A stretch of 64,000 nt of DNA from Candidatus Omnitrophota bacterium (lineage in GTDB: Bacteria; Omnitrophota; Gorgyraeia; JAFGGP01): contig JAFGGP010000030.1 in assembly GCA_016930485.1 (NCBI GenBank), forward strand, positions 66,745-130,744, read 5' to 3'. Of the stretch, positions 4,401 through 56,902 are shown piece after piece. Under the pieces are notes generated by a model. It worked only from the letters and a program-made list of their open reading frames with translations. It was not told the origin of the DNA and did not search any database. Position numbers and translations under genes: made by a program. Within the stretch, counting starts at the first letter, position 1, and each line of letters begins with the position of its first letter.

Positions 4401-4437
4401 AAAATAAAAAAGGAGGTATGCAACTACCTCCTTTTTG
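4401..4437 (-). terminator. Rho-independent terminator after the outer-membrane protein gene
   Basis: Stem aggaggta / tacctcct with a 6-nt loop. The plus-strand A-run gives a U-run on the minus strand. Confidence 0.75.
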
Positions 4438-8064: not shown

Positions 8065-8494
8065 CCTGATGAGCCTCCCCTTCTATCCCCCGTGCACGCG
8101 CAATCAAGGTGTTTACTAAATGAGCAAGGCGGTCCAGATCATCGCTCTCCCTGAAACGAACGGTGACATTCTGATCGCCATCAACAAACTTTGTTAATTC
8201 ATTCTCGAGGCGGTGCAAAGGACCGCAGAGGCGGTTCGACACAATCAGCGTCCAGGTAATCAGCCCAGCACTGATGATGACATACCCCAGAAAGAGCACC
8301 AGGAGTATTCCTAAAAGCTGGGGACCCAATGTGGTATAGTCAAAGTCGTGCACCAGAATCCCGTTGGTTATTAAAAGACTTAAAAACAGATAAAAACACG
8401 CCATAAGAAGTGCCGTCGGCAGCAGAATCCCCAGCAATACCAGCTTTAAAAACTGAAACTGCGTCCTTGTTTTTGTAAGACGTCTTTTTCTCAT
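8051..8494 (-). CDS. Two-TM membrane protein with HAMP-like cytoplasmic domain only
   Basis: ORF 8051..8521. Start moved to MRKRRLTK (ATG 8492-8494), which has AGGAGG 7 nt upstream. Two hydrophobic helices, then a HAMP-like segment (NRLCGPLHRLENELTKFVDGD...DDLDRLAHLVNTL). The 3' end overlaps the helicase start by 14 nt. Confidence 0.5.
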   Translation of the reverse strand: MRKRRLTKTRTQFQFLKLVLLGILLPTALLMACFYLFLSLLITNGILVHDFDYTTLGPQLLGILLVLFLGYVIISAGLITWTLIVSNRLCGPLHRLENELTKFVDGDQNVTVRFRESDDLDRLAHLVNTLIARARGIEGEAHQDETV

Positions 8495-8521
8495 AACAGT
8501 ACCTCCTGGCAATTGTAGCAT

Positions 8522-8590
8522 ATAGCGACTAGCGGGTAGCGTATAGTAAAAATAAAAAATCTAATCGCTAACCGCTATACGCTGATCGCT
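8522..8590. repeat. Word-array hairpin, TAGCGNN family
   Basis: Left arm tagcgac tagcggg tagcgta tag, A-rich loop, right arm cta atcgcta accgcta tacgctg atcgcta. Five-bp blocks pair and the 2-nt variable positions mostly mismatch. Fills the gap between the folE stop and the next gene start. Confidence 0.8.
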
Positions 8591-8595
8591 AAAAG

Positions 8596-12288: not shown

Positions 12289-12298
12289 GTATATTTTG

Positions 12299-12488
12299 GT
12301 TCTACGGGTTCACGGGTTATTCGAGTTGCTCGGGTTCAAAAATAGTTCTTCGGGTTGCACGGGTTCGGCGGGTTCTTCGGGTTCGTTTTTGTTATCAAAT
12401 TATTTTTCAACCCGTGAACTCGCTAACTCGCTAACTCGTGAACTATTTTCCACTCGCGAACACGCGAACTCGCAGAACACGCGAACCA
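12299..12488. repeat. Word-array inverted repeat, CGGGTT/CGAGTT family (largest copy)
   Basis: Left side has ~9 words containing CG[GA]GTT at an 8-9 bp period. AT loop at 12386-12408. Right side has ~9 words AAC[CTA]CGNN at an 8-bp period. gttcacgggtt (12308-12318) is an exact complement of aacccgtgaac (12409-12419). Confidence 0.85.
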
Positions 12489-12498
12489 GTTTTAAAGG

Positions 12499-14751: not shown

Positions 14752-14793
14752 TAAAAAAAGAAGGGCTTCTTTTTGACCTGAAGAAGCCCTTCT
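14752..14793 (-). terminator. Rho-independent terminator after the TM-helix gene
   Basis: Stem gaagggcttctt / aagaagcccttc, followed on the minus strand by TTTTTTT. Confidence 0.8.
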
Positions 14794-15606: not shown

Positions 15607-15697
15607 TGTTTTGTTATTCAGGAACGTCGTGCCCGTACATATGTTTTGTACTTTTTTTATTATTTAACACCCGCTCGGAATAAAAGTCAAATAAATA

Positions 15698-15726
15698 AAC
15701 CCTACACCCTTTTTGGTGTAGGGTTT
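15698..15726 (-). terminator. Rho-independent terminator after hppA
   Basis: Stem aaaccctacacc / ggtgtagggttt, then atttatttg on the minus strand. Confidence 0.65.
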
Positions 15727-15751
15727 ATTACTCTATCTCCTTATATATCAT

Positions 15752-17725: not shown

Positions 17726-17733
17726 TTTTTAAA

Positions 17734-17958
17734 GTCACAAGACACATGACACAAGTCACATGTGAAAACTCAAAATAAAAAAAGTGAATAACAGCATATC
17801 ATTCTTCAAAAAAAGTCGGGAAGTCTTCGCCCCCTCATCCAGCGAGCCGCTCGAATCATAACAATCGTTCTCAATTATGTTTCTATGCGCTAACTGACAA
17901 TTCGCCATACAGAGTTTTTTGGGATTTTGTTTTTTGTTCTTACTTGTGACATGTGTCT
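17734..17958. repeat. Nested element: GWCACAN arms outside, A-rich AAATCAA-type arms inside, ~125-bp unique core
   Basis: Left arm gtcacaa gacacat gacacaa gtcacat gtg (17734-17764). Right arm cttgtgacatgtgtc (17943-17957) complements it at 14 of 15 positions. Inner arms are aaaactcaaaataaaaaaag and gagttttttgggattttgttttttg. Lies in the hppA upstream region. Confidence 0.8.
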
Positions 17959-18034
17959 ATACTAAGGTGTAATTGCTGCCTATTGTAGCAAAAAAAAATA
18001 ATTTAACAAGTTATTTTCAAGTTCCTGAATATAT

Positions 18035-18066
18035 AAAAAACCCGGCTAGAAAACCGGGTTTTTTAT
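18035..18066 (-). terminator. Rho-independent terminator after the repeat-protein gene (bidirectional in appearance)
   Basis: Stem aacccgg / ccgggtt, flanked by A-runs and T-runs on both sides. Confidence 0.8.
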
Positions 18067-18115
18067 CAAACGGCACCTGCATATTACTATAGTGCCCTTC
18101 CTCGTTGCCGCTGCC

Positions 18116-19759
18116 TTATCGAATAACGATGACTGGATCGTCAAACGGCGGATTTTCCTCAATAACCGTCCATTGCCCCTCGGGGTGCACAACAATCTGA
18201 CATTCGATATAATGGATTTTGTCTTGATATTGTAATATCACCAGTCTCGTCATAACACCAACTAAGCCATCAGGCGTTATATCTTCAGAACCAACGATCG
18301 AGATGTCTTCTTTATCCACGCCAAGGGCGCAAGCAAGGTAGGTACGGGCGGTGAGTTCTGCCATGATTGGATCATGGTTTGGTATTTTTCTTACCGCTGT
18401 CCATTGTGCACCAAAATGGCTGCCAAGGTGGCACTCGATATAATGGACGGTGTCTTGATATTGCAGCACGACTACCCGCATGCTGAGTCCAGCCATACCG
18501 TAAGGGGTTATATCTTCAGAATCTCTGACTGTGATATCGCCTCTATCCACCCCTAGCACATTAGCCAGGTAGCGGCGGGCCGTAAGCTCTGCTATGAAGG
18601 GGTTGTAGGCTGAAATCTCCCGCGTAACAGTCCACTGCGCACCTGGATAAACGCCGATCTTGCATTCGATATAATGAACGGCACCTTGATATTCCAGTGT
18701 AATTACCCTTGTCATAGCACCAAGCAGGCCGCGAGGTGTCACGTCTTCGGAGTCGGTGACCCTGATATCACCTTTGTCAACCCCTAGCGCATCCGCAAGA
18801 TAGGCGCGGGCAGTCAGCCCTGCTATAAGCGGGTCGGATGGTGAGATTTCCCGGATAGCCTTCCATGGCGCATTACGCCTGTCGGTGGCACGCTGACACT
18901 CAATATAGTAGGTTTTACCTTGATATTCCAACAGTACAAGCCTTGTCATGACACCGGTTACTGTCATAACAAGACCGTTCATGGATAGAAACGTTAGATT
19001 TTCGGAACCGATAATCGTAATATCTTTCTTCTTCACACCGAGTTTATCAGCAAGGTAATCACGGGCCGCGAGCTCTGCAGGATGTCTCTCTATCTTTGGT
19101 TCTGGTTTTGGGTTGCGCTCGGGGCCCTGTCTTTGCTGTTTGACAAAACAGCTGCCGTCCCGCTCTATCCAGCCACCGGAACCGTTCGACGTGCCGTAGT
19201 ACAGATCCTTGCCAACCTTGAATGTCACAGTATAGGATTGCAACACAACATTGAGCACTGCATAATTTCCTATAGGCCAATGCGTAAGAGTGCCCGTGCT
19301 GAGATTGGTAAGTGCGATCTCATCGACCGAAATTCCTAATTGTTCGGCCAGTTTTTCTTTCCCGTCCTGGATAACCGCCATGGCAATCTCTCGAAACGCT
19401 TCATAGGTAGGTTTGGGAATATAGGTCCAGACGCCCTTGTTGTATGCCTCCTTGAGTATTTCTTCAATATCTTCTTCGCCCTCTGTTTTGCGCCTGCTAA
19501 ACGGTGATGGTTGTTCTCTATGCTTGTTCCTCATTGCCTCTATATGTTTACGTTTCTCTACCGCGCGGTTTAGTATCGCGTCCTGGCCCAATACATCCCC
19601 TACACTTTGCAGATTATCCCCCGGCTTTCCTTCGCCTGTTTGGGGCTTCGGCGCAGGCGGCGCTGCCCAGGCAAGCTGACTGCATATAAAAAGAATGATA
19701 AGGTTAAGCGTGATTGCCCGAATGGAGAATGCCCTATTGAATGTGTGATACGGTACCAT
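18116..19759 (-). CDS. Secreted protein with four tandem ~77-85 aa PepSY-like repeats
   Basis: ORF 18116..19828. Start set at MVPYHTF (ATG 19757-19759), which has AAGGAGG upstream. Signal peptide ...ICSQLAWA. Four repeats of the form AELTAR.YLA..LGVD+.DI.V..SEDITP.G....MTRV..L.YQ...HYIEC. Confidence 0.7.
   Translation of the reverse strand: MVPYHTFNRAFSIRAITLNLIILFICSQLAWAAPPAPKPQTGEGKPGDNLQSVGDVLGQDAILNRAVEKRKHIEAMRNKHREQPSPFSRRKTEGEEDIEEILKEAYNKGVWTYIPKPTYEAFREIAMAVIQDGKEKLAEQLGISVDEIALTNLSTGTLTHWPIGNYAVLNVVLQSYTVTFKVGKDLYYGTSNGSGGWIERDGSCFVKQQRQGPERNPKPEPKIERHPAELAARDYLADKLGVKKKDITIIGSENLTFLSMNGLVMTVTGVMTRLVLLEYQGKTYYIECQRATDRRNAPWKAIREISPSDPLIAGLTARAYLADALGVDKGDIRVTDSEDVTPRGLLGAMTRVITLEYQGAVHYIECKIGVYPGAQWTVTREISAYNPFIAELTARRYLANVLGVDRGDITVRDSEDITPYGMAGLSMRVVVLQYQDTVHYIECHLGSHFGAQWTAVRKIPNHDPIMAELTARTYLACALGVDKEDISIVGSEDITPDGLVGVMTRLVILQYQDKIHYIECQIVVHPEGQWTVIEENPPFDDPVIVIR
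18119..19078 (-). repeat. Four tandem coding repeats (231-255 bp each) inside the secreted-protein gene
   Basis: Unit boundaries from the protein alignment: 18824-19078, 18593-18823, 18362-18592, 18119-18361. Conserved blocks LTAR.YLA, LGVD, SEDITP, HYIEC, QWT. Confidence 0.8.
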
Positions 19760-20046
19760 GTGAAACCTCCTTGTTGTTATATGCTGCAGCGCCTTTTCAT
19801 CTTTTGTTCTCCTGCTAATGCAAACCAAGCTACCGGTTCATCTTCGGTAGCCTGGCCATCCTTTTTTCTGCGCTATCTAAGGATCCGTAACTTTGCGTCC
19901 CACATTCTCATGTGGTTTGCCTTTTCGTGATGTCCCTATATATACAACCCCGGCCGTTAGAAAACATTACATTATTTTTTTGGTCTTTTACAGGATCGGC
20001 TGGTAACTGCATAAATTTAAAGGAGTTATAGAATCATCGGCGGGAT

Positions 20047-22189: not shown

Positions 22190-22223
22190 TGAAAAAGGTG
22201 TTGTTCGTATCAACAACACCTTT
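22190..22223 (-). terminator. Rho-independent terminator after the acidic secreted-protein gene
   Basis: Stem aaggtgttgtt / aacaacacctt with a 6-nt loop, then tttttc on the minus strand. Confidence 0.7.
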
Positions 22224-22258
22224 TGTTGCGGGCTGTTACTATCTATTGTCGGAGGGCA

Positions 22259-24121: not shown

Positions 24122-24212
24122 GAGTTCACGAGTTCTGCGAGTTCTTTTTTAGCGTGTAGCGATTATAATTCTTTGTGTCACTACACGCTAGTCGCTAAAC
24201 GCTAACCGCTAG
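24122..24212. repeat. CGAGTT-family fragment followed by a TAGCGNN-family hairpin
   Basis: gagttcacgagttctgcgagttc (24122-24144), then ttagcgtgtagcgatta ... tacacgctagtcgctaaacgctaaccgctag. ttagcgtgtagc is identical to 55245-55256. Confidence 0.8.
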
Positions 24213-24312
24213 AAACCTCCAGTTATCGGCCCCTGTCCGTGTAACGGCGACGGAGGCCGATAAGCCGGAAGCATATTAACAAGTACTCGATTTACAGTTT
24301 GGTTATTTTATA

Positions 24313-24360
24313 GTGACGCATTTTGTGATACTGCATGTGACATGTGTCTTGTGTCATGTG
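24313..24360. repeat. Word array, GTGAC/GTCAC family, abutting the nrdJ stop codon
   Basis: gtgacgc attttgtgata ctgcatgtgacatgtgtcttgtgtcatgtg. gtgacatgtgtct (24337-24349) is identical to 17946-17958. Confidence 0.8.
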
Positions 24361-26679
24361 TTAAGAGCACTTGGAATAACCGCAGGCATGACATACGGCA
24401 CAGCCCTCTTCATGCCACAGGGCAGCGCCGCAATCAGGGCAGACGCCGATTACATTCGCTCCTCCTCTTGGCCCCTTAACCGGCATCAGTTCTTCTTCGT
24501 GCATGGTATGGGGAGAATGCCTTTCTTCTATCTTGGGGACCTCGGCACCTTCCGCATTCAGCCGTTTTTCGATAACACGCGCTATGGCATCGGCGCATGA
24601 AAAGATCCGCAGCCCCCTGAGCCACGTCGGTTCAGGACATCTGATTCCCCTGAGCTGCTCCATGATGGCCTCCAGCGGAATGCCGCTGCGCAGGGCCAGT
24701 GATACGAGCCGGCCGATCGCCTCAAGCTGGCTTGCCGCGCATCCGCCGGCCTTGCCCATCTGCGAAAACATCTCAAACGGATTGCGCTGTTCGTCTTCAT
24801 TAATGGTCACATACAGACTGCCGCAGCCGGTGCCTATTTTGGTGGTGGTGCCGTGTATGACTTCTGGTCTCGGCCTTCTGCGGAATACATGGGTCTCTTT
24901 GTCGTGGTCTTCCTGGAGGCCCTGCATCTCTCCCGAGGCGCCTCCGGTCTTCTTAATCCCGACTGTCAGCACCTGTTCCTCGCGGCTTCCGTCTCGATAA
25001 ATGGTGATGCCCTTACACCCCATATCGTACGCCGCCAGGTATGCCTCTCTCACTTCTTCTTTTGTGGCACTATTGGGAAAATTGATCGTCTTTGAGACCG
25101 CATCGTCGGTATACTCCTGAAAGGTAGCCTGCATCTTGACATGCCAGTACGGCGTAATGTCCCGCGCAACCACAAACACCTTTTTAATCTCTTCGGGAAT
25201 TTCAGCAATGCCCTGAATGCTTCCGTCCTGGGCAATCCGCCGCATCAGCTCCTCGGAATAAAAACCCCGGTCGCGCGCGCATTTTTCAAAAGCCGTGTTC
25301 ACATAATAAAGATCCGTCCCATCCATAACCGTCTTGGTAAAGACAAGAGAAAAAAGCGGTTCTATACCGCTGGAACAGTCGGCGATCATGCTGATGGTCC
25401 CGGTCGGCGCAATGGTGATAACGGTAGCGTTCCTGAGTTTCGGGCCACCCGGTATGTTGTACACGCTGTGTTCGAAGTTCGGGAATACCCCGCGCTCTTC
25501 GGCGAGTTCTGCCGAGGCTCGCATAGCCTCCTCATAAATAAATCCCATGACCTCTTTGGCAATCTTATTGCCCTCTTCCGAGTCATACGGTATCCGCAGC
25601 TGATAGAGCATGTCCGCAAACCCCATAACACCCAGGCCGATCTTGCGATTGCCGTGGACCATCTCCTCGATCTGCGGCAGAGGGTACTTATTCACTTCGA
25701 TAACATTGTCGAGAAAACGCACTGCCTCTTTTACTACCCTGGCAAGTCTGCCGTAATCAATTCTTTCGCTGGTCACCATGTGAGCCAGATTAATCGAACC
25801 GAGATTACATGATTCGTAGGGCAGGAGCGGTTGTTCACCGCACGGATTGGTCGCCTCGATCTCACCGAGCCTGGGCGTCGGGTTATCCTGGTTTACCCGA
25901 TCGATAAAAATGATGCCGGGATCGCCGTTTTTCCACGCGTTCTCTACCATTCTGTCAAAGACCTCCTGCGCCCTGCGTCTCCCCTCCACCTTTTTAGTCT
26001 GGGGATTCATGAGGCAATACTCATCATCGGTCTTTACCCGTTCCATAAAGTCGTTGGTCACCGCGACGGAGATATTAAAATTCGTGATGTCCTTTTCGTT
26101 TTGCTTACAGGTAATAAACTCCTCGATATCAGGGTGATCGACGCGCAGGATGCCCATATTCGCCCCTCTGCGCGTACCCCCCTGTTTCACCGCTTCGGTG
26201 GCCGAGTTAAATACTTTCAAAAACGATACCGGGCCGCTTGCAACACCACTGGTCGATCTGACGATACTGTTTTTCGGTCTCAGTCTGGAAAAAGAAAACC
26301 CCGTTCCCCCGCCTGACTTATGTATGAGTGCAGTATTCTTGATTGCCTCAAAAATACTCTCCATAGAATCGTCAACCGGTAACACAAAACAGGCGCTCAA
26401 CTGTCCCAGCTCTCTACCGGCATTCATCAACGTCGGTGAATTCGGAAGAAAATCCAACCGAGTCATTGCGTCGAAAAACTTCTCTTCCCACTCGGCCTGC
26501 TGTGCATCGGTAGCATTGAATTTTTTTTCTGCGCTGGCGATGTGACGCGCAACACGACGAAACATCTCTTCAGGGGTCTCGGCCGGACAACCCTCCTTAT
26601 TCTTAATAAGATAACGTCGTTCTAACACCCTTTTGGCATTTTCGGACAAAACAAGTCGGCAAGAACGGGTTGGTGACAT
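24361..26679 (-). CDS. nrdJ: Class II (adenosylcobalamin-dependent) ribonucleotide reductase
   Basis: Active-site block NPCGEQPLLPYESCNLGSINL and IAPTGTIS. No beta-subunit gene nearby. C-terminal CPDCG...CAVCHACG zinc ribbon. ATG at 26677-26679 with AGGAGG 5 nt upstream; the ORF track starts at a GTG at 26685. Confidence 0.9.
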   Translation of the reverse strand: MSPTRSCRLVLSENAKRVLERRYLIKNKEGCPAETPEEMFRRVARHIASAEKKFNATDAQQAEWEEKFFDAMTRLDFLPNSPTLMNAGRELGQLSACFVLPVDDSMESIFEAIKNTALIHKSGGGTGFSFSRLRPKNSIVRSTSGVASGPVSFLKVFNSATEAVKQGGTRRGANMGILRVDHPDIEEFITCKQNEKDITNFNISVAVTNDFMERVKTDDEYCLMNPQTKKVEGRRRAQEVFDRMVENAWKNGDPGIIFIDRVNQDNPTPRLGEIEATNPCGEQPLLPYESCNLGSINLAHMVTSERIDYGRLARVVKEAVRFLDNVIEVNKYPLPQIEEMVHGNRKIGLGVMGFADMLYQLRIPYDSEEGNKIAKEVMGFIYEEAMRASAELAEERGVFPNFEHSVYNIPGGPKLRNATVITIAPTGTISMIADCSSGIEPLFSLVFTKTVMDGTDLYYVNTAFEKCARDRGFYSEELMRRIAQDGSIQGIAEIPEEIKKVFVVARDITPYWHVKMQATFQEYTDDAVSKTINFPNSATKEEVREAYLAAYDMGCKGITIYRDGSREEQVLTVGIKKTGGASGEMQGLQEDHDKETHVFRRRPRPEVIHGTTTKIGTGCGSLYVTINEDEQRNPFEMFSQMGKAGGCAASQLEAIGRLVSLALRSGIPLEAIMEQLRGIRCPEPTWLRGLRIFSCADAIARVIEKRLNAEGAEVPKIEERHSPHTMHEEELMPVKGPRGGANVIGVCPDCGAALWHEEGCAVCHACGYSKCS

Positions 26680-26746
26680 CAACACCTCCTCTCATCGTGG
26701 GTAATTATCTCGTGGGTTGTGCTAATTGTGCAGGAGAAGGAAAGTA

Positions 26747-26762
26747 CCACAATATAAAGTAT
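26747..26762 (-). promoter_or_regulatory. Candidate NrdR box 2 upstream of nrdJ
   Basis: Minus strand ATACTTTATATTGTGG matches at 13 of 16 positions. Overlaps the -10 region of a TTGACA-N17-TACTTT promoter-like sequence. Confidence 0.4.
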
Positions 26763-26803
26763 ATCTTGAGATGGGTATTGTCAAGAGGAAAAAATGCAAA
26801 ATT

Positions 26804-26819
26804 ATACAAGATATTGTAG
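26804..26819 (-). promoter_or_regulatory. Candidate NrdR box 1 upstream of nrdJ
   Basis: Minus strand CTACAATATCTTGTAT matches the 16-bp NrdR palindrome consensus acaCwAtATaTwGtgt at 12 of 16 positions. Overlaps a TATAAT hexamer. Confidence 0.4.
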
Positions 26820-26904
26820 TCGTTAAAATATCTTTCTACTACAGATTGGATAGTGGGGGCTGCTGTGGTATCGGTATAGGCATAACAGATAATAAAAAAA
26901 CGAG

Positions 26905-27696
26905 TTACATCACAGGCCACACCATCTCAACCGCCTCTTGCTTGACCCAGCCACGCAGGTCTCCAGAGATATACATCTCGAGCCAGCCATGTAATGACTT
27001 TACTGCCCGAAAGGTCGTTCCTTCGTGTACTGCAAACTGTACCGAGTATTGCTCTCCCGGTCCGGAATGAACCGTGACTTTCGGCACTATAACAACCGCT
27101 TCCTGCGCGTTTTCCCGGTTGTATATTTTTATGCCGCATGATATCGAAACAGCCACGGCAATTGCCGCAACAAAGGCAATAACCGGGATAAGTGCGCGCC
27201 GTGCATATATCATGTAGAACGCCAAGGCAATTAAAACTGTCAGAATAACTACGAGGATCGAGAGAAAACGCAGTGTTTCGTCTAATGTGAATGCATGGTG
27301 GATATCAGTAAGCAGTCTCTGTAAGAGTATTGTACTCGGAAGTTTAACTTTGTCTACTATTTTATTTTGTGCTATCTCCAGATTTTTTTTGGTGTCCTTA
27401 TCTCGGGGCGCAAGAAGCAGCGCCCTTTCATAATTCACAATTGCCTTCCCCAGTTGTCCGTTTTTAAAATAAGCGTTTCCCGCATTGTAATATACATCAG
27501 CTGAGAGGATGCCGCGCCTAATAATTTCCTCATATCGACCGATCGCCTCTTGATAGTTTCCCTGCTCATAGAGGTAATTACCACGGGCAAATAAAGACTG
27601 CGGCGTATCCTCGGCAGCGGCTATAGACAAAAAATACGCCATGCCACATGTCAGCAATAACGCGCATAGATCCCTTCGGTTGAATACCTTCATCAT
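26905..27696 (-). CDS. batE: BatE-like protein (TPR repeats, TM helices, C-terminal SH3-like domain)
   Basis: Start set at MMKVFNRR, 1 nt after the batD stop. TPR pairs (YNAGNAYFKNGQ), two TM helices, SH3-like tail (VTVHSGPGEQYSV...GWV). Last gene of the Bat operon. Confidence 0.7.
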   Translation of the reverse strand: MMKVFNRRDLCALLLTCGMAYFLSIAAAEDTPQSLFARGNYLYEQGNYQEAIGRYEEIIRRGILSADVYYNAGNAYFKNGQLGKAIVNYERALLLAPRDKDTKKNLEIAQNKIVDKVKLPSTILLQRLLTDIHHAFTLDETLRFLSILVVILTVLIALAFYMIYARRALIPVIAFVAAIAVAVSISCGIKIYNRENAQEAVVIVPKVTVHSGPGEQYSVQFAVHEGTTFRAVKSLHGWLEMYISGDLRGWVKQEAVEMVWPVM

Positions 27697-27697
27697 T

Positions 27698-29563
27698 CTA
27701 TATCCTGATCCTCTCCAGCGAAACAATGATATCCTCCGCCTCGTTGACACTCTGGGTAAACCGGCCCCTGTCCTGCTTCACATCGGTAAACCGCATAAGG
27801 TCGCACTCCTCTAACAGTTTCTTTGTCTTGTGAATTAGCTCTTCAGAAACTCCCCGTCCCCGTAGCGTGTCGCAGAGTTCTATCGTGGTCATACCGGAGG
27901 CGGAGAGATTAAGTCTGTCAGCGATATACTCGGTTATCGCCCGGTACACCTCGCGGTATACGGCCTCTCCCGAATCCTGCTCTTTGAGTCTCTGCAGGGC
28001 CTTCTTTAGTCGTTTACGCGCAACCTTATGCGCCCGATGCAGCCGCGCATACCGCACATCCTGCGTCAATTTCCTGCGGTGCCGGGCATCGACAAAACAG
28101 ATAAACAGTATAAGCGGGCTCAAAAGATGGGCATATATAAAAAGCCTGTTTCTGTAAAGCGGTGTCTGTAACCCAGTCATCTGTCTTAATTCGGTCTTGA
28201 TATAACGAATATCCGTGGCAATAAGTGCAATCTCTTTTTTCTCAGTGTATGTTAGACTGGGCACAACCGGGCCTGTCGCCTGAAGGGCCTCCTGCGGTTT
28301 CACGGTTACGTTAATCGCGATCGGCTGTGTCGTAATTGTGCCATACTCTTTCGTCCTAGGGTTAAAAAAATGATAGGTGAGCGGCTCGAGTGTTGCCGTT
28401 CCGGCGCTCTTTGGAATTAATACCTTTTGAAAGGTTTTTTTGCCCCCTACTACATAATTATTTTTTGTGACCTCCTCGGAGCTCCCTGAATCGTAGACTT
28501 TACACATGTCCGGAACCGATACAACCGGATCCGAGAGGGTCCTTATATTGCCCCGACCTTCGATGCTTATAGTAAGTGTTACGGGATCGCCTTCCTGGAC
28601 TTCGAGTCTGTCGGCCTTGACCGACATGTCATACTGACCTACCGCCCCTGCAAAATCCCGGGGCCTGCCTTGTTCGGGAAGCGCCTTTACCTCAAGGGTG
28701 ATCGGGTCGGTGGTAAGAATAACCGGTTGACCCCGGCGAAAAATACTCATAGGATCCCGGTCGAATATATCAAAGGCGCTTCTTCTAAAAAAATCCTCTA
28801 TACGGTCAACACTTGCCTCAAGACGTGCAGGACCAATAACGTACTGGCCGGGCGCCGTCGGAAAGAGGGCGGTCTTTATCTCGGTAACCAGGTACCGTCT
28901 CCCGTTAATAACCTTATAGTACTTATTTTGAGGAGGCATATCCTCTGCCCAGAAACCAGTCGTGGAAGGCGGCGTATAAACTGGATTGTCAAACAGTTGA
29001 ACCGCCTGATAGAAAGCAAAGGTCAACGTCACCTGTTCATTGACATACGGCGTCAGATTGTCGACGTAGGTCTCTATAAACATCTCCTGTGCCCTGCCCT
29101 GTTCCTGGTCGCCGGTCTGTGGCAGGGACGGCTGCGATGACGGTCCTCTGGAAGACGGTGCCTGCGCATACCCTTGAGGGCCGCTGTCTGTCACCTCGAT
29201 CTCTAACGGCTCTGTTGAATACGTCTGCCCGTCATACGTAACACGGATGGGGCCTATCGTTTTCTTGCCGGTGGCGTTCGGCACGAGTATATAGGTAAAC
29301 GTCACCTGAGCAAATACCTGGGTATTGTGCACTGAGATATTCTGCGCGCGTCCCGAAGAGTAGGCGGTAAAATCGGCAAGGGGAGGAAACTGCGGCTCCG
29401 GAATCCTGCCCGTAGCCCCGGAGATAACTACGGTAAGCGTCACCGTCTCATTAATGGTCATCCTGTCTCTATCGAGAGAGGCCGCTATGGAGATATCGGC
29501 GGCAGAGGCCACTCCTGTGAACAGCCATAGACCGTAGACCGTAGACCATAGACCATAGACCAT
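27698..29563 (-). CDS. batD: BatD-like oxygen-tolerance protein
   Basis: ORF 27698..29632. The likely start, MVYGLWSTVYGLWLFTGVASA (ATG 29561-29563), gives a signal peptide. Large extracytoplasmic region, TM helix and C-terminal ECDLMRF block, as in BatD. Confidence 0.75.
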   Translation of the reverse strand: MVYGLWSTVYGLWLFTGVASAADISIAASLDRDRMTINETVTLTVVISGATGRIPEPQFPPLADFTAYSSGRAQNISVHNTQVFAQVTFTYILVPNATGKKTIGPIRVTYDGQTYSTEPLEIEVTDSGPQGYAQAPSSRGPSSQPSLPQTGDQEQGRAQEMFIETYVDNLTPYVNEQVTLTFAFYQAVQLFDNPVYTPPSTTGFWAEDMPPQNKYYKVINGRRYLVTEIKTALFPTAPGQYVIGPARLEASVDRIEDFFRRSAFDIFDRDPMSIFRRGQPVILTTDPITLEVKALPEQGRPRDFAGAVGQYDMSVKADRLEVQEGDPVTLTISIEGRGNIRTLSDPVVSVPDMCKVYDSGSSEEVTKNNYVVGGKKTFQKVLIPKSAGTATLEPLTYHFFNPRTKEYGTITTQPIAINVTVKPQEALQATGPVVPSLTYTEKKEIALIATDIRYIKTELRQMTGLQTPLYRNRLFIYAHLLSPLILFICFVDARHRRKLTQDVRYARLHRAHKVARKRLKKALQRLKEQDSGEAVYREVYRAITEYIADRLNLSASGMTTIELCDTLRGRGVSEELIHKTKKLLEECDLMRFTDVKQDRGRFTQSVNEAEDIIVSLERIRI

Positions 29564-29788
29564 CCGCCTCCGGCTGATGAAAAAAGTCTTCGGTTGATTG
29601 CCTGTGGTTTGTGGTTTGAAAAAATATACCATGGTTTATGTTTGAATCTGTTAAGGAGTAAAGTTTTTTATTTCACGACTCGCTCTGCGCTCGCTTGAAA
29701 AGTATGACCTTTGAGTTCTTCGATAGTCGGGCGCCTGCCCTCCGTAGCCTTGGCGAAGGAGGGATCTTCGGTCTATGGTCTATGGTCT
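29526..29788. repeat. AGACCRT heptamer array and its perfect 19-bp inverted partner, flanking the batC-batD junction
   Basis: Five tandem AGACCRT heptamers (with flanking partial words) at 29526-29563. agaccatagaccatagacc (29543-29561) is the exact reverse complement of ggtctatggtctatggtct (29770-29788). Confidence 0.9.
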
Positions 29789-29794
29789 TGTATA

Positions 29795-30658
29795 TTACCA
29801 GTCTTTTTCAACCCTGATGGCGTCCCTGGAAATAGTGGTTTTCTGTAACTCCTTTAACTGGTCTTTCTCCGCCTGACCCATGGCATTCAGTATTCGCTCG
29901 GCATCCTCTTTTGTCATCTCACTGCCTTGACCCTGTTTTTGTTGTGAAGAGGCTTGAGCCGCTTCTTTTTCTTCTCCGCTACCCTCTTCATTTTTATTGC
30001 CTTCTTCTTCCTCGCCAACTTCCCCGGAAGATTCTTCGGATCCATTCTCCTTTTCTTCCTCATGAACGGCCTGCGTCTTTTCTTTTTCCCCTTTTTCTCC
30101 CTGCTTTTCTTCCGACTGATTCGCTCCCTCTTCCTTATGTTGTGTCCCGCTCTGTGCACCTTGAGCCTGCTGCTGTTGTTGCGACATCCCTGTGCCTTCT
30201 TTTTTCTCGGCAGACTCCTTTAACTTTTTCTGTATCATCTCTATATTATACTTCGCGTCTTCGTCATCATCCCGCACCTCGAGACACTTTTTATAGTTTT
30301 CCAGGGCCTCCAGTAATTTTCCGGACCGGTAATTCGTATTTCCCAAATTATAATAGGTATCAGCCTGAAGCGCTATATCTTCGGTTCCGAGGGCCTGGGT
30401 ATATTCCTTTTCGGCCTCGTCAAACTTACCCTGCCGGTACAGTGCGTTTCCTATATTGTAGTGAATCTCGCTGGATGCCGGTGAGTCTATCTGTGCATCC
30501 CTGTAGAGCCTGAGCGCTTCATCGCTCTCTCCCCGTTCCAGGAGCCCGTTGGCCTCTTTGACCTTCGAGCCTACAGAGGCGGCCTCTGCAGTAACACAGC
30601 ACAGTATCGCTATAACCGTTATACCACAAAGGGTAAAAAGACGCCCTGTAGCCTTCAT
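29795..30658 (-). CDS. batC: BatC-like TPR protein with acidic low-complexity tail
   Basis: Start MKATGRLF overlaps the batB stop (ATGA). Signal peptide, TPR repeats (YNIGNALYRQGKF, YNLGNTNYRSGK), then an E/K/G/Q-rich low-complexity region. Confidence 0.7.
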   Translation of the reverse strand: MKATGRLFTLCGITVIAILCCVTAEAASVGSKVKEANGLLERGESDEALRLYRDAQIDSPASSEIHYNIGNALYRQGKFDEAEKEYTQALGTEDIALQADTYYNLGNTNYRSGKLLEALENYKKCLEVRDDDEDAKYNIEMIQKKLKESAEKKEGTGMSQQQQQAQGAQSGTQHKEEGANQSEEKQGEKGEKEKTQAVHEEEKENGSEESSGEVGEEEEGNKNEEGSGEEKEAAQASSQQKQGQGSEMTKEDAERILNAMGQAEKDQLKELQKTTISRDAIRVEKDW

Positions 30659-31677
30659 GATACCGCCCCCTTTTTGCGCAAGCTTACCTTCGGAACTCCG
30701 CACATCTCGATCGCCAACAGTAACCATGAGAGGATCAGGGGGATCTTAAACCGCTCCTCATAGCGTGTATAGACCCGGTCGCTCAGCTCCTTTTTTTCCA
30801 TGCTGGATATGTCGTCGTAAATGCTGTCAAGCTCGAGCTGCCCCGCAGTAGACCGGTAGTATTTCCCGTTGGTTGTTAACGCGATTTTCTGCAGGGTATA
30901 TTCGTCGAGCTTGCTCACAACAGGCGTCCCGTCGGCATCCTTCTTGTGTCCGATCACATTCCCAGCCTCATCTCTTATAGGAATAGGCTCTCCGGAAGGC
31001 GTCCCAATACCGATGGTGTATATCTTAATACCCTCTCTCTTCGCCTCCTCCGCCTCATTGATCGCGTCCCCCGTATGACTCTCGCCGTCGGTCATAAGAA
31101 TAAACACCTTATGTTTTCTCTCTTTCTTGATAAAGGCATCCCGTGCCGCCTGCACCGCCTTTGCCACCGAGGTACCGCCCACCGGGATGTACCCCGCGTC
31201 TATCTGCTGGACAAACATGCTGCATGCCTCATAATCCAGCGTCAGGGGACACTGCACAAAGCTCTCGCCGGCAAACAGTACAATGCCGATCCTGTCCCCT
31301 TTCAGTTTTTTTATCAGGCCTGAGACCTCCCGCTTGGCAGCAGCCAGGCGCGTCGGCTTTACATCCTCGGTAAGCATACTATCGGATACATCGATGGCGA
31401 CAATAATGTCGATCCCGCGTCTCTTCTCTATGCCTAATGTGGCGCCGAACTGCGGTCTGGCTATCGCCACAACCAGAAAAGCGCACGCGCAGACAATTAG
31501 GCCCGATCGCACCTTCTGTCGTGTGCGCAACGGGCGGGGAAACAGTCTCTCAGCGCCCGCCGAATCGGCAAAACGCAGCCTGAGCCGTTTCTTTACCTGA
31601 AAGACATAGACATAAAAAATAACGAGCGCCGGAACCAGTGCTAGTAGATTTAAAAAATGAATCGCTCCCCACTTCAT
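30655..31677 (-). CDS. batB: BatB-like von Willebrand factor A protein
   Basis: N-terminal TM helices, a vWA MIDAS-like DVSDSM and a C-terminal TM helix. Confidence 0.8.
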   Translation of the reverse strand: MKWGAIHFLNLLALVPALVIFYVYVFQVKKRLRLRFADSAGAERLFPRPLRTRQKVRSGLIVCACAFLVVAIARPQFGATLGIEKRRGIDIIVAIDVSDSMLTEDVKPTRLAAAKREVSGLIKKLKGDRIGIVLFAGESFVQCPLTLDYEACSMFVQQIDAGYIPVGGTSVAKAVQAARDAFIKKERKHKVFILMTDGESHTGDAINEAEEAKREGIKIYTIGIGTPSGEPIPIRDEAGNVIGHKKDADGTPVVSKLDEYTLQKIALTTNGKYYRSTAGQLELDSIYDDISSMEKKELSDRVYTRYEERFKIPLILSWLLLAIEMCGVPKVSLRKKGAVS

Positions 31678-31695
31678 AGTTAACCTTTCGTATTA

Positions 31696-32043
31696 GTCAC
31701 ATGTCGCCTGTCACAGGTCACCAGTTTTTAAATCAAAAATCAAGGTGCAAAAATCAAAATGGCATATCAAAATGTAAAAATTAATAAAGTCACCTGGTCG
31801 CCGGTCACATGTCACAAGTAAAAACCGCAAACCTAATTTTGAACCTTTTGTGTCATTCCGGGCTTGGCCCGGAATCCATTATTTCGCTTTTTCCCTTTCG
31901 GTGGCTTCCCGCTTCCGCGGGAATGACACAGGATTTGTTCATTTTGAATTTTACATTTGCCTGCCCTGAGTTGCATCGAAGGGTCATTTTGATATTTGAT
32001 GTTTGATATTTAATTTTACTTACCCGTGATTTTGTGACTTTGT
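31696..32043. repeat. 348-bp composite element between batA and batB (GTCAC arrays, AAATCAA/TTTGATA arrays, central ATTCCGGG-type hairpins)
   Basis: GTCAC arrays at 31696-31722 and 31789-31818 flank an AAATCAA array. atatcaaaatg (31764-31774) is an exact complement of cattttgatat (31985-31995). tgtgtcattcc (31849-31859) is an exact complement of ggaatgacaca (31920-31930). Local hairpins are attccggg-cttgg-cccggaat and ttcccgc-ttcc-gcgggaa. gtgattttgtgacttt sits at the right end. Confidence 0.85.
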
Positions 32044-33036
32044 CTAGGGTAATACCCGCAACGCGGTCCCGGATAGAACAATCTCGCTCAGTAATAGCAG
32101 CAGCGCCGGGATCAGAACCGTATTTGCCCGTTCGTCATACTCGACGTACTCCCGGGTCTGAATCTCCGTCTTTTCCAGTCTGTTAATATGTTCGTATATC
32201 TCGCCGAGTCCCTTTTCATCCTTTGCCCTGAAGTACAACCCGCCTGTGATCCGGGCGATTTCGTCCAGCGTCTTTTCATCGATCTCTGTTGCCATGCGCA
32301 CATACTGCCTGCCAAAAATCGGATGGTCAACCGGATAGAGTGCGCCGCCCGGCGTACCTGCGCCGATCGTATATATCTTGATGCCGAACGTCTTGGCAAC
32401 CCGCGCCGCGGTAATCGGGTCGATCTCGCCCTGATTGTTCACGCCGTCGGTAAGCAAAATAATGACCTTGCTCTTTGCGGTCGAGTCCTTCAGGCGATTC
32501 ACCGCGGTGGCGATCGCCGTACCGATGGCCGTGCCGTCGGCGATCATGCCGATGGTCACCTCGTCGGTAAGACGCTTGAGAATGCCGTAATCCAGGGTTA
32601 ACGGGCACTGTGTTATGGCGTACCGCGCAAAGACAACCATGCCGACGCGGTCGTGCTGCCGTTCATCGATAAATTTCTTGATCACCTCTTTTGCCGCACC
32701 GAGCCGGTTCTGCGGCTTAAAGTCTTCGGCCTTCATGCTGCCCGATATGTCAAGGGTCAGGATAATATCAACACCCTCGGTTATCAGCTCTTCCTCGGTT
32801 GTGCCGTACTGTGGCCGTGAAAGCCCGACAACCATAAGGGTTACAACGGCGACGCGCAACACAAAAGGAACGATACTTAAGCGCCTGCGCAGCGAGGGTG
32901 GGATCCGCCCAAAAGGGGCGGTCTGCGAATAGGTCACGCCGGCACGGTTCTGTGAAAACTGCCGGCGAAATATTACTATCAGCACCAGCCCTGCGAGCAG
33001 CAACAGATAGAGAGGATCGGCCAAACGCATATTCAT
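32044..33036 (-). CDS. batA: BatA-like von Willebrand factor A protein
   Basis: N-terminal TM helices, MIDAS DISGSM and a C-terminal TM helix. Start overlaps the upstream gene by 4 nt. Confidence 0.8.
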   Translation of the reverse strand: MNMRLADPLYLLLLAGLVLIVIFRRQFSQNRAGVTYSQTAPFGRIPPSLRRRLSIVPFVLRVAVVTLMVVGLSRPQYGTTEEELITEGVDIILTLDISGSMKAEDFKPQNRLGAAKEVIKKFIDERQHDRVGMVVFARYAITQCPLTLDYGILKRLTDEVTIGMIADGTAIGTAIATAVNRLKDSTAKSKVIILLTDGVNNQGEIDPITAARVAKTFGIKIYTIGAGTPGGALYPVDHPIFGRQYVRMATEIDEKTLDEIARITGGLYFRAKDEKGLGEIYEHINRLEKTEIQTREYVEYDERANTVLIPALLLLLSEIVLSGTALRVLP

Positions 33037-35715: not shown

Positions 35716-35733
35716 TGTTTTCCTCCACTTTTT

Positions 35734-35796
35734 GAGCTTTCAGCCGTCAGCCCTCAGCTTTTCGCGAGCTGAAAGCTGGTGGCCAATAGCTGAAGG
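35734..35796. repeat. Word-array hairpin, NTCAGCN family
   Basis: gagc tttcagc cgtcagc cctcagc tt, loop ttcgc, then gagctgaa agctggt ggccaat agctgaa gg. Lies between the DUF58 and PPIase genes. Confidence 0.75.
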
Positions 35797-35807
35797 TGCT
35801 GTGTGCC

Positions 35808-36686: not shown

Positions 36687-36690
36687 TTGT

Positions 36691-36792
36691 GAGTGCTCAA
36701 GTTCTTCGGGTTCTACGAGTTCACGAGTTAAAAAAATGATTCGATAACAAAATCGAACCCGAGTAACCCGCGAACTGGCGAACCCGTGAACT
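36691..36792. repeat. Word-array hairpin, CGGGTT/CGAGTT family
   Basis: gagtgctcaagttcttcgggttctacgagttcacgagtt, A-rich loop, then cgaacccgagtaacccgcgaactggcgaacccgtgaact. Lies between moxR and DUF58. Confidence 0.8.
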
Positions 36793-36794
36793 AT

Positions 36795-41149: not shown

Positions 41150-41155
41150 GGGGTT

Positions 41156-41237
41156 GGGCTCTCAGCCATCAGCCTTCAGCCGCTGTCCGCCACACTGCGT
41201 GGCGAGATCTCGCCTTCAGCCGCTGAGAGCTGAAGGC
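41156..41237. repeat. NTCAGCN-family element with internal GC hairpins, between htpX and clpB
   Basis: gggctctcagccatcagccttcagccgctg ... cgccacactgcgtggcg, ggcgagatctcgcc ... ttcagccgctgagagctgaaggct. ctcagccatcagcc is identical to 62557-62570. Confidence 0.8.
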
Positions 41238-53867: not shown

Positions 53868-53874
53868 GGTAGCA

Positions 53875-54315
53875 TCATCCCCCTGTTAAAATGCCTGTAA
53901 CCTTCTCTAAAATAGATACGTATGTCTCTCTCTCATCGGGAGAAAGGGCGCTGAATCCCACCTTGATAACCTCGGCGCGCTGTGAACGCACCTTCTGAAT
54001 GAGCGCCTGTCCTCTTTTTGTCAGCTGGATAAAAATGACCCGTCTGTCGGCCTCTGAAGGAAGCCTTGTCAGGAGATCAAGTTTTGCGAGCCTGTCCACA
54101 ATCCCGGTGACCGCCGGCCTGGAGATACGCATCTCCGCGGCCACCTCACACATCTTTATCCTGCCGGCATTCCCGATTAATTCCAGAACAAGGAACTGCG
54201 GGATACTCAGATCTCCTTTTATAAAAATAGCCGACTGCCGCACGTGAACCTTCCGGATAAATCGAGGGATAATCTGGTTCATGCGTTCTATAAACTGTTC
54301 GATGGTCAGAGACAT
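53875..54315 (-). CDS. MarR-family transcriptional regulator
   Basis: Winged-helix pattern LSIPQFLVLELI...MCEVAAEMRISRPAVTGIVDRLAKLDLLTR. Confidence 0.85.
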   Translation of the reverse strand: MSLTIEQFIERMNQIIPRFIRKVHVRQSAIFIKGDLSIPQFLVLELIGNAGRIKMCEVAAEMRISRPAVTGIVDRLAKLDLLTRLPSEADRRVIFIQLTKRGQALIQKVRSQRAEVIKVGFSALSPDERETYVSILEKVTGILTGG

Positions 54316-54405
54316 CGTCGGCCCAAATAGTTCATCTTGTTATTAATTAATTTCGTTAACTATTCACACTTTTAATTATATACCAGAGAATGGGCGGTGT
54401 CAACT

Positions 54406-54594
54406 CATTTGAACCTTCAGCTGTCAGCTATCAGCTGTCAGCTTTTTAAAAGACGGTTAGTTTTTATACATGTGTAACTTTAATATATATAATATGTTAT
54501 ATTATATCGATTACTGCGTATGCTGACATGTTCCCTGCCCCATCAACAACTTTGAATCCGAAAGACTGAATGCTGATAACTGAAGGCCGAAAGC
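54406..54594. repeat. NTCAGCN-family inverted arms flanking a ~120-bp AT-rich core upstream of the marR operon
   Basis: Left arm ccttcagctgtcagctatcagctgtcagc (54414-54442). Right arm gactgaatgctgataactgaaggccgaaagc (54564-54594). Each arm is preceded by a tttgaa word. Confidence 0.8.
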
Positions 54595-54595
54595 T

Positions 54596-55231: not shown

Positions 55232-55244
55232 TTATATTCCTTTT

Positions 55245-55433
55245 CTTAGCGTGTAGCCGATTAGCGGCTAGCGTATGGTGAATAAATCCTAAACTCTACC
55301 TCATTCTCGTAATTAGTAACTCGCTTCGCTTTCTCAAACGGCTTTTAAAGTGTTAGTTACTAGTTACTGATTACTAGTTACGTTTTTCTTTGTGGGTTTG
55401 TCTAATCGCTAAACGCTATCCGCTAGACGCTAA
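55245..55433. repeat. Nested element: TAGCGNN arms outside, TAGTTAC-type arms inside
   Basis: Outer arms ttagcgtgtagccgattagcggctagcgtatgg (55245-55277) and ctaatcgctaaacgctatccgctagacgctaac (55401-55433). Inner arms cgtaattagtaact and gttagttactagttactgattactagttacg. Confidence 0.85.
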
Positions 55434-55435
55434 CA

Positions 55436-56748: not shown

Positions 56749-56902
56749 CCAAATGTCAAATGAATCACTTAATCTCAAATAACAAATAAAAAAATTTTTT
56801 AGGTAATTTGGGATTGAAGATTCATTTTGATTTTGCCTGCCAACTCTTTAGCAGGGACATTGGTCATTTGTCATTAAGTTACCTGTGTCATGTGTCATTG
56901 GT
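56749..56902. repeat. AT-rich AAATCAA-type hairpin (~40-bp arms) plus a GTCAT/GTCAC word array overlapping the cca 3' end
   Basis: Arms at 56749-56794 and 56795-56834 are about 80% complementary (tcaaatgaatc pairs with gattcattttga). Then cctgc...gcagg, then gtcattt gtcatta agttacct gtgtcat gtgtcat tgg. The last codons of cca (LTNDT) lie in this array. Confidence 0.75.

Follow-up and report, generated by a model that had tools for sequence, protein, structure and literature searches.

The junction between batC and batD in this Candidatus Omnitrophota genome raises the question of why a perfect inverted repeat, built of short tandem units, joins the 3' flank of one gene to the first codons of the next, and what such a repeat may do there. 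The stretch analysed (hereafter the window) comprises 64,000 nt of contig JAFGGP010000030.1. A sequence-only reading of it had proposed that a non-coding type of repeat was recruited as the hydrophobic core of the BatD signal peptide, and that a hairpin between the two arms could gate the translation of batD. The account that we favour as a whole, with moderate confidence, is that the inverted repeat belongs to a class of paired simple sequence repeats (SSR), that one tract of the pair encroached on the 5' end of batD, and that its translation is tolerated. The features on which the argument rests are given below.

29795-30727, minus strand, batC open reading frame (ORF), TPR protein (Pfam TPR); a 287-aa form appears in one gene-caller record
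29795-29797, minus strand (mRNA order 29797-29795), batC stop codon TAA
29770-29788, minus strand, upstream arm (arm 1), GGTCTATGGTCTATGGTCT on the plus strand and AGACCAUAGACCAUAGACC on the mRNA; 2.7 heptamer units, beginning 6 nt after the batC stop
29543-29561, downstream arm (arm 2), AGACCATAGACCATAGACC on the plus strand
29525-29563, minus strand, heptamer tract of 5.6 units, encoding MVYGLWSTVYGLW and containing the 19-nt arm 2
27698-29632, minus strand, batD ORF, Pfam PF13584 (BatD)
29561-29563, minus strand, candidate batD start ATG in the first tract unit, 621-aa product
29630-29632, minus strand, alternative batD start ATG of the public annotation, 644 aa; adds MVYFFKPQTTGNQPKTFFISRRR before the tract
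29567-29571, minus strand, GGAGG Shine-Dalgarno-like motif, 3 nt before ATG 29563 and 10 nt before ATG 29556
29501-29563, minus strand, predicted signal peptide of the short form (MVYGLWSTVYGLWLFTGVASA, 21 aa), the predicted cleavage site lying before ADISIAAS

The inverted repeat and the reading of its downstream arm

The two arms were exact reverse complements over their whole length (19/19) with 208 nt between them, and the coordinates and letters first given for them were verified. Not one of 100 dinucleotide-preserving shuffles of the window gave an arm match at up to three mismatches. Among exact inverted repeats of the 64 kb with at most 400 nt between their arms the pair was also the longest, the runners-up reaching 11-12 nt, and a per-spacer inverted-repeat test gave it z = 17.4; the repeat itself is established. 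On the mRNA the order is the batC TAA, the 6 nt TATACA, arm 1 (29788 to 29770) and arm 2 (29561 to 29543), and this strand reading agreed with the distance of 6 nt that had been claimed between the batC stop and the first arm. The second arm begins, as had also been proposed, at the G of the ATG at 29563-29561, and it spans codons 2-7 of batD.

Both arms are tracts of the same heptamer. Tandem Repeats Finder (TRF) reported period 7 with 5.6 copies at 29525-29563 (93% matches), the five full AGACCRT units counted previously occupying 29529-29563, and 2.7 period-7 copies at 29770-29788. Arm 2, taken with its tract, is longer than arm 1 (5.6 vs 2.7 units). On the mRNA the longer tract reads AUGGUCU three times, ACGGUCU twice and then AUGG, and its in-frame translation gave the peptide that the sequence-only reading had derived from it. 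Because the arms are low-complexity tandem repeats, pairing between them is possible in several registers.

The coding properties of the unit differ between its two orientations. (GGTCTAY)n has no stop in any frame and gives a VYGLWS(M/T) heptapeptide in every frame; since 3 and 7 share no factor, 21 nt of it encode a cyclic permutation of one heptapeptide whichever frame is read. Each ATGGTCT unit brings an ATG. With three AUGGUCU units in a row every frame holds an AUG, and one of these stays in frame when the copy number downstream changes by one. The opposite orientation (AGACCAT) has TAG in all frames, and the upstream arm carries UAG in all three frames on the mRNA. A general design of the window's repeats, with a stop-rich arm first and a start-rich arm second, was considered and rejected: it fits AGACCAT/ATGGTCT, whereas downstream arms elsewhere in the window mostly hold TGA, TAA or TAG and do not allow read-through.

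The tract of batD has to be read, because the only usable in-frame starts, ATG 29632 and ATG 29563, lie upstream of it or in it, and it is almost certainly translated. Both ATG codons are candidates for the start of batD. The GGAGG motif stands at 3 nt from ATG 29563, vs a Shine-Dalgarno spacing of 5-8 nt at other genes of the window; ATG 29556 lies at the ideal distance of 10 nt from GGAGG, yet it is out of frame and opens an ORF of 23 aa. No Shine-Dalgarno motif was found at ATG 29632. This start supplies RRR (..ISRRR-M..) immediately before the h-region, the GGAGG being read in the long form as part of RRR. A third in-frame candidate, the GTG within GVASA, would leave no signal peptide. The public NCBI record 'MAG: protein BatD [Candidatus Omnitrophica bacterium]' (MAG, metagenome-assembled genome) was a 100% match to the window BatD; only the 644-aa form is called, and no public record of the 621-aa product of the short start was found.

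In the 120 BatD homologues listed, the usual N-terminus consists of M-(K/R)-(K/Y)-, a hydrophobic stretch, S-Y-A and then (D/E)DISISA, and the signal peptide of about 19-21 aa stands directly before the conserved (D/E)DISISA. The window BatD reads ...LWLFTGVASA followed by ADISIAAS; counted on the 644-aa form, residue 51 is where the Pfam BatD domain begins. The A-S-A of the window protein before ADISIAAS aligns with the S-Y-A of the homologues, as expected for a c-region with small residues at -3 and -1. The first 13 residues of the short-form signal peptide come from the tract, and the last 8 (LFTGVASA) are homologue-like (compare LFLTGVSYA in homologue P0024). Among 84 homologue signal peptides, 83 have K or R within the first six residues; the n-region starting at ATG 29563 has neither, and a positively charged n-region is obtained only from the start at 29632. 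When Trp and Tyr are credited, as on the Wimley-White octanol scale, the window value lay within the range of the homologues (-0.77 vs -0.98 ± 0.14). Judged on its residues, the predicted signal peptide of the window BatD is atypically weak, though possible.

The Logan assembly of run SRR13394437, which is independent of the MAG, showed 100% identity to window positions 24796-31878 (7,083 nt). As the MAG and Logan assemblies agree base for base, the tract is not an artefact of a single assembler; both assemblies (NCBI MAG and Logan) derive from one sample. The remaining genes of the bat locus are:

32044-33036, minus strand, BatA, Pfam BatA and VWA
30655-31677, minus strand, BatB, Pfam VWA
26905-27750, minus strand, BatE-like, Pfam TPR

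Four batD loci were found among GTDB species representatives, with 45-47% identity and three of the four in Omnitrophota, and none of these four showed heptamer tracts at the batC/batD junction. The gap between batC and batD is 231 nt here vs 0 to about 60 nt in six homologous loci, and no comparable tract pair was present between the two genes in those six.

Paired heptamer tracts in the window and in other genomes

The batC/batD pair belongs to a class. Of the window's intergenic nucleotides 2.6% lie in period-7 tracts, vs 0.12% of the coding ones (about 22-fold), and intergenic cover by other periods was 0.7% each for 8 and 9 and 0% for 4-6 and 10-11. The best ungapped inverted repeat was then taken for each of 32 spacers, read on the sense strand. 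Its arms had period 7 in 10 of the 32, and in two further spacers they consisted of 8-9-nt units. These spacers are:

8522-8595, arms of period 7
12289-12498, arms of 8-9-nt units
17726-18115, arms of period 7
24130-24360, arms of period 7
from 29564, the batC/batD spacer, arms of period 7
31678-32043, arms of period 7
35716-35807, arms of period 7
36687-36794, arms of 8-9-nt units
41150-41236, arms of period 7
53868-54595, arms of period 7
55232-55435, arms of period 7
56753-56887, arms of period 7

The head-to-tail arrangement of the units at batC/batD and the intergenic excess of period 7 place the locus among heptanucleotide tandem repeats. The full complementarity of its arms and the nine other spacers with period-7 arms place it among paired inverted heptamer tracts. 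In the bracketed spacers the minimum free energy folds were closed by the tract-tract stem, with z from -3 to -6 against shuffles. The usual layout is a stop codon, 0-12 nt, arm 1, a loop of 8-230 nt, arm 2, a Shine-Dalgarno motif and an ATG; arm 1 begins at most about 12 nt after the upstream stop in 9 of 12 pairs. The layout is seen at 8522-8595, where arm 2 is followed by GGAGG and ATG 8494. The longest-ORF start of the adjoining gene 8051-8521 (minus strand), ATG 8519-8521, sits inside a heptamer arm, which suggests that the real start lies downstream at ATG 8492-8494, with GGAGG 8 nt before it.

Stems of the other pairs are periodic, with cores of 4-6 bp broken at the variable unit positions. 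The unit families found again in separate spacers were TTAGCGN, TCAGCNN, GTTCGCG-type, ATGTGAC, TTTGATN and GGATTTN. Such units come back 3-5 times, as tandem heptamers without a conserved unit of 20-40 nt like that of the repetitive extragenic palindromic (REP) elements, and each family holds one internal order, for instance TAGCG...CGCTA in 3/3 pairs. Terminator hairpins with T-runs, some with a promoter, were located in other spacers (4407-4436, 14759-14793, 15694-15729 and 22193-22224). Because classical terminators occupy other spacers, the tract pairs are a separate kind of element.

Two traits single out the batC/batD pair within this class: no other pair of the window is perfect, and no other has its downstream arm inside coding sequence; unlike in the other pairs, this arm lies past the Shine-Dalgarno motif and the ATG. 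The sole other period-7 tract of the window that touches coding sequence is a TCAGCNN tract at 62553-62576 (plus strand), which overlaps the 3' end of a TtuA-like gene (61643-62599). Two contigs of the same-sample Logan assembly end in tract-rich spacers, L130 at window position about 12360 and L005 at 31878, and these breaks are consistent with tract sequences that recur elsewhere in the genome. No further GGTCTAY tract appeared in 5.5 kb of additional Logan sequence around the contig.

The GGTCTAY unit recurs outside this organism. A contig scan with GGTCTAYGGTCTAYGGTCT found at least 120 metagenome stretches carrying GGTCTAY x2.7. The loci fetched from them were rich in heptamers: over 545 kb, 316 tracts had period 7, vs 23 with period 6 and 23 with period 8. 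Inverted partners of these tracts lay upstream and downstream about equally (12 vs 10), and most metagenome GGTCTAY tracts were unpaired, so that pairing is not obligatory for the unit. Twenty-three of the tracts listed stood at the 5' ends of long ORFs. In locus L057 (715-800), GGTCTAT x3.7 forms the h-region of an NlpD-like lipoprotein (LysM and M23 domains) with the lipobox LSGC, MRKLKLSLFICGLWSMVYGLMFLSGC. In L127 (627-760), the h-region of a Sec-type signal peptide, MKKLPLLVYGLWSMVYGLIVSLII...VFA|QS, is likewise made of GGTCTAT x3.7; a second tract, CCCTGTA, lies in the c-region of the same peptide, and paired TCAAATC/GATTTGA tracts stand upstream. The tract is also found inside signal-peptide-like N-termini in L022 and L032, and in a prepilin-type leader in L125.

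Other BatD genes are among these cases. In L111, an unrelated high-GC metagenome contig where the GGTCTAY unit has the same gene neighbourhood as here, an AGACCAY x5 / GGTCTAY x3 hairpin (3335-3410) stands directly upstream of a BatD-like signal peptide (weak DUF4381 match). Another BatD gene (L008, 9300-9372) has a TCTGTYT tract which encodes LFSVFCLLFSVFC within the signal peptide, and in a further one (L006, 10001-10045) a GGCAGNN tract at the 5' end encodes MAVGSRQMAVGSRQ. Many BatD N-termini in databases show a 7-aa periodicity (P0087, P0098, P0109 and P0114) and are probably of like origin. As GGTCTAY and other heptamer tracts fill the leaders of unrelated genes, the co-option of heptamers into N-terminal export signals is recurrent.

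Finally, the spacer between batC and batD holds two more elements besides the arms:

29603-29618, minus strand, second heptamer tract detected with TRF, AAACCAC x2.3 on the mRNA (TGTGGTT on the plus strand)
29736-29763, no strand assigned, REP-like hairpin TGCCCTCCGTAGCCTTGGCGAAGGAGGG, adjoining the upstream arm
copies of this hairpin sharing the conserved loop GTAGCCTTGGCGAA: window 29736-29763; L082 1158-1195, 2918-2935 and 3136-3163; L117 4287-4304

The TGTGGTT tract may be a decayed former partner arm. The hairpin was identical in 28 of 28 positions to L082 3136-3163, on an unrelated contig of 56% GC, and the L082 copy, too, is flanked by heptamers in the order seen in the window, a GGTCTAA tract next to it and an AGACCAN tract beyond its other side. 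Variants with the compensatory stem CCGCC/GGCGG (vs CCCTCC/GGAGGG) were present three more times in L082 and once in L117. In L082 the hairpin elements are read in frame as RRSLGEGGS in the N-terminal regions of ABC-ATPase-like ORFs. This shared hairpin would keep in play a possible origin of the spacer as a mobile composite element.

A promoter and terminator scan of 29300-30000 gave no site in the batC-batD spacer on either strand. Rfam gave no match in 29400-29900 at E <= 1 and none at the locus in the whole-window scan at gathering threshold. No support was obtained for a batD promoter within the spacer, for an antisense RNA gene there or for an intrinsic terminator. The sole Rfam match of the window at gathering score, away from the bat locus, was a c-di-GMP-I riboswitch (RF01051, 57.6 bits with a gathering score of 35) at 19843-19931 on the minus strand, upstream of the ORF 18116-19828.

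The predicted helix and the weighing of explanations

The 19-bp arm duplex has a predicted energy of -34.4 kcal/mol. In a partition-function model of the transcript from the end of batC to the start of batD, arm 1 paired with the tract with P = 0.96, distributed over the registers 0 (about 0.5), +7 (about 0.37) and +21 (about 0.09). In the same model the unpaired fraction of the initiation region (-12 to +18) was 0.20 with arm 1 and 0.38 when arm 1 was scrambled or absent, and the accessibility of GGAGG was unchanged (0.57 vs 0.55). From the size of its footprint, a ribosome halted at the batC stop would presumably reach just the outer 3-5 bp, those of codons 6-7, and not the AUG; for this reason the predicted effect is a moderate dampening and no switch. 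In phage MS2 a distant upstream segment pairs with the initiation region of the replicase cistron; the arm lies inside the translated coat gene and ribosomes open the helix. The upstream arm of the present locus is likewise predicted to pair with the initiation region of the next cistron but, unlike in MS2, coupling by unwinding is doubtful because arm 1 lies after the batC stop. No functional feature set the batC/batD pair apart from the other pairs.

The account that we favour would run as follows. The inverted repeat is made of two opposed tracts of one heptanucleotide SSR (AGACCRT / AYGGTCT) and belongs to a genome-wide, REP-like class. The downstream tract would have expanded or shifted across the 5' end of batD, the tract encroaching on the gene, and would have overwritten the original start codon together with the n-region and some half of the h-region. 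Translation would now begin at ATG 29563 in the tract, or pass through the tract from ATG 29632. The overwriting would be tolerated because (GGTCTAY)n is free of stops and gives the same mildly hydrophobic aromatic heptapeptide in all frames, and because signal peptides are loosely constrained. A helix of about -34 kcal/mol, if formed in vivo, would close the whole spacer into a loop and cover positions +3 to +21 of batD. Expression may be affected through the stem acting as a general REP-like intercistronic element, in mRNA stability or processing and with a somewhat lower independent initiation of batD. Such a general effect is the most likely one, a switch specific to batD being less likely.

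Several observations weigh against this account. Within the window the GGTCTAY unit is confined to this one locus. The next-best BatD among 375 homologues is only 51% identical, and no closer genome was found. About 21 of the 120 metagenome tracts listed have an inverted partner within 500 nt. In the other pairs of the window, G.U and A.C mismatches are few and balanced, without bias, and sense vs antisense folding energies were mixed across 16 spacers; as neither comparison shows a bias, there is no positive evidence of selection on the mRNA rather than the DNA, or of selection at all. At batC/batD the antisense (plus) strand of 29520-29795 even folds better than the sense strand (-103.9 kcal/mol, z -6.5, vs -79.9 kcal/mol, z -3.9), because the TGTGGTT tract pairs with AGACCAT via G.U on the plus strand only. 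Finally, the best 10-aa Kyte-Doolittle mean of the signal peptide is 1.54, vs 3.07 ± 0.32 (minimum 2.17) in 84 homologues. On this last value the term hydrophobic core was generous; the rest of that early proposal, that a repeat of non-coding type was taken into the signal peptide, agrees with the intergenic enrichment and with the required translation of the tract.

Other explanations were also weighed. The same architecture could be a dedicated gate, a long-range helix selected to occlude the batD start and opened by batC ribosomes or by a signal. The modelled helix spans the G of the AUG together with codons 2-7, arm 1 begins 6 nt past the batC stop, the pair is the sole perfect one in the window, and the initiation region is predicted to be less accessible (0.20 vs 0.38) at a pairing of 0.96. 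We nevertheless consider a gate unlikely, as about ten other spacers share the architecture upstream of unrelated genes, Shine-Dalgarno access is unchanged in the model, the AUG is largely paired even with arm 1 scrambled, and there are three registers, in one of which (+21, P about 0.09) arm 1 misses the AUG. The proposed gating of batD by the hairpin is thus not supported as a dedicated device: similar pairs occur in other spacers, and the model predicts a modest effect. A second possibility, that a segment of about 250 nt resembling a transposable element of the miniature inverted-repeat kind (MITE) or a REP doublet forming a hairpin (REPIN) was inserted between batC and batD with the inverted repeat as its termini, would account for the gap of 231 nt vs 0 to about 60 nt in homologues. 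It would also fit the 28-nt hairpin that is 100% identical in L082 with flanking tracts in the same order, the single internal order of the tract families (TAGCG...CGCTA, 3/3) and the Logan contig breaks in tract-rich spacers, which suggest further copies in the genome. It is improbable, however, since the rest of the 208-nt interior is single-copy in the window and 128 loci, there is no target-site duplication at the arm ends, the loops differ between pairs in length (8 to about 230 nt) and are unrelated in content, and arm 2 is longer than arm 1 and runs into essential coding sequence. Searches at the arm ends, in the window and in the 128 loci gave neither the target-site duplication nor the shared interior sequence of a MITE, and no single conserved multi-copy palindromic unit of the REP/REPIN kind was present within the 64 kb.

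The position of a heptamer SSR in the 5' coding region of batD recalls loci of phase variation, in which slippage would shift the frame of batD or the choice of AUG, as in Neisseria opa (PMC3960869) or E. coli neuO (PMC13001214). From ATG 29632 a change of one unit would frameshift batD, and one extra downstream unit would bring the well-spaced ATG 29556 into frame. Against it, the perfect runs (3 + 2 units) fall short of known contingency tracts, the presence of an AUG in all frames buffers switching, the two assemblies are identical (though from one sample), and BatD is a housekeeping-type envelope protein and not a surface antigen; phase variation is in our judgement quite unlikely. That the pair is a neutral by-product, in which polymerase slippage of 7 nt made the tracts, template switching homogenised the partners and the overlap with batD is a tolerated accident, is possible though doubtful. 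The lack of G.U/A.C strand bias and of a steady folding advantage of the sense strand would agree with neutrality, as would the mostly mismatched variable unit positions of the other pairs, the unpaired state of most metagenome GGTCTAY tracts and the fact that heptamers are the commonest long SSRs in many bacteria (PMC4679880, PMC4692102). What slippage alone would hardly give is the regular placement of the arms, with arm 1 near the stop in 9 of 12 pairs and arm 2 before the Shine-Dalgarno motif, nor does it readily explain that tract-tract pairs are the best inverted repeat in 10-12 of 32 spacers. As for a mis-assembled tract or a BatD start downstream of it, tandem repeats are prone to mis-assembly and the h-region is weak on the Kyte-Doolittle scale. 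Such an artefact is scarcely credible all the same, with MAG and Logan identical over 7,083 nt and with the only downstream start (the GTG in GVASA) removing a signal peptide that the listed homologues with complete N-termini possess.

Known repeats and the meaning of the finding

The REP elements of proteobacteria, with the bacterial interspersed mosaic elements (BIME) and REPIN, are abundant extragenic hairpin repeats between co-transcribed genes and at gene ends. They are distinct from terminators and alter mRNA stability in some operons. By analogy, REP/BIME may be taken as the closest functional counterpart for extragenic non-terminator hairpins in operons. However, REP are conserved palindromic units of 20-40 nt mobilised by REP-associated tyrosine transposases (RAYT), whereas the arms described here consist of heptamers in tandem, from several families, and enclose loops that vary greatly.

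As regards translated repeats, CTCTT coding repeats in the leader-peptide region of the Neisseria opa genes were reportedly described by Stern et al. in 1986. In opa, as in batD, a short tandem repeat in the 5' coding region is translated as a hydrophobic part of a signal or leader, the opa unit being CTCTT in the leader-peptide region (PMC3960869). The opa repeat, however, has a 5-nt unit and forms long perfect tracts; its on/off switching by frameshift at high frequency is proven, and it has no inverted partner, whereas batD has a heptamer (three units giving 7 aa) in a short imperfect tract, with an AUG in every frame and an inverted partner after the upstream stop. The neuO gene of E. coli K1 has a 5' heptanucleotide coding repeat, (AAGACTC)n, with 3-53 perfect units and phase variation (PMC13001214). 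It is similar in that a heptanucleotide repeat is translated at the N-terminus, three units giving seven residues, but the neuO repeat is neither a signal peptide nor part of an inverted pair.

Intergenic GGGAATC heptamers have been described in Xanthomonas, with 70-75 arranged in convergent (inverted) pairs (Rehm et al. 2015, PMC4692102). As in the window, two such intergenic tracts often lie close together in inverted orientation, and the pair could fold into a stem-loop or a cruciform. There, however, one G-rich unit is involved, discussed as a G-quadruplex former, and overlap with a coding start is not reported for it; here at least six families (TTAGCGN, TCAGCNN, GTTCGCG-type, ATGTGAC, TTTGATN and GGTCTAY) occur and the pairs bracket whole spacers. 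The cyanobacterial short tandemly repeated repetitive (STRR) heptamers are comparable, as are the TAACTGA repeats. The latter, direct repeats found in marine Beggiatoaceae, cyanobacteria and Bacteroidetes, are concentrated just upstream of start codons (MacGregor 2015, PMC4679880). They resemble the unit of batC/batD in having stops in all frames in one orientation, the other being occasionally read at protein ends; they differ in being a single unit, almost never in inverted pairs (1 in 170 sets) and not reported as signal peptides.

Leaders encoded by SSR (opa), translated 5' heptamers (neuO) and paired heptamer tracts (Xanthomonas) were thus already known, and what is new is their combination: several heptamer families bracket the spacers of an Omnitrophota genome, one arm of a pair is the start and the N-terminal signal coding of a conserved gene, and GGTCTAY repeats this role in unrelated genes. 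Searches of the literature available to the analysis found no direct precedent for paired heptamer tracts in Omnitrophota or for signal peptides encoded by heptamers.

A practical consequence concerns annotation, because gene callers extend or misplace starts in such tracts, as in the 644-aa BatD, the ATG in arm 2 at 8521 and the odd N-termini of BatD entries in databases. As a wider speculation, which we think unlikely, the heptamer tracts of this Omnitrophota lineage would be 'zippers' of a genome-wide system that loops intercistronic spacers and brings a stop codon beside the next start region, the stems acting on polycistronic mRNAs as processing, stability or coupling signals, an SSR-built functional equivalent of REP or of rRNA-type processing stems; stop-free units such as GGTCTAY would then be recurrent raw material for de novo signal peptides in many environmental bacteria. 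With about one spacer in three enclosed by paired tracts, the genome points to a layer of operon organisation, built on repeats, that is undescribed for the uncultured phylum Omnitrophota. If the favoured account is true, batD would be a clean natural case of an export signal that was overwritten by an expanding non-coding repeat and still works. Its repetition with the same heptamer in unrelated bacteria would bear on how loosely signal peptides are constrained and on the origin of new N-termini.

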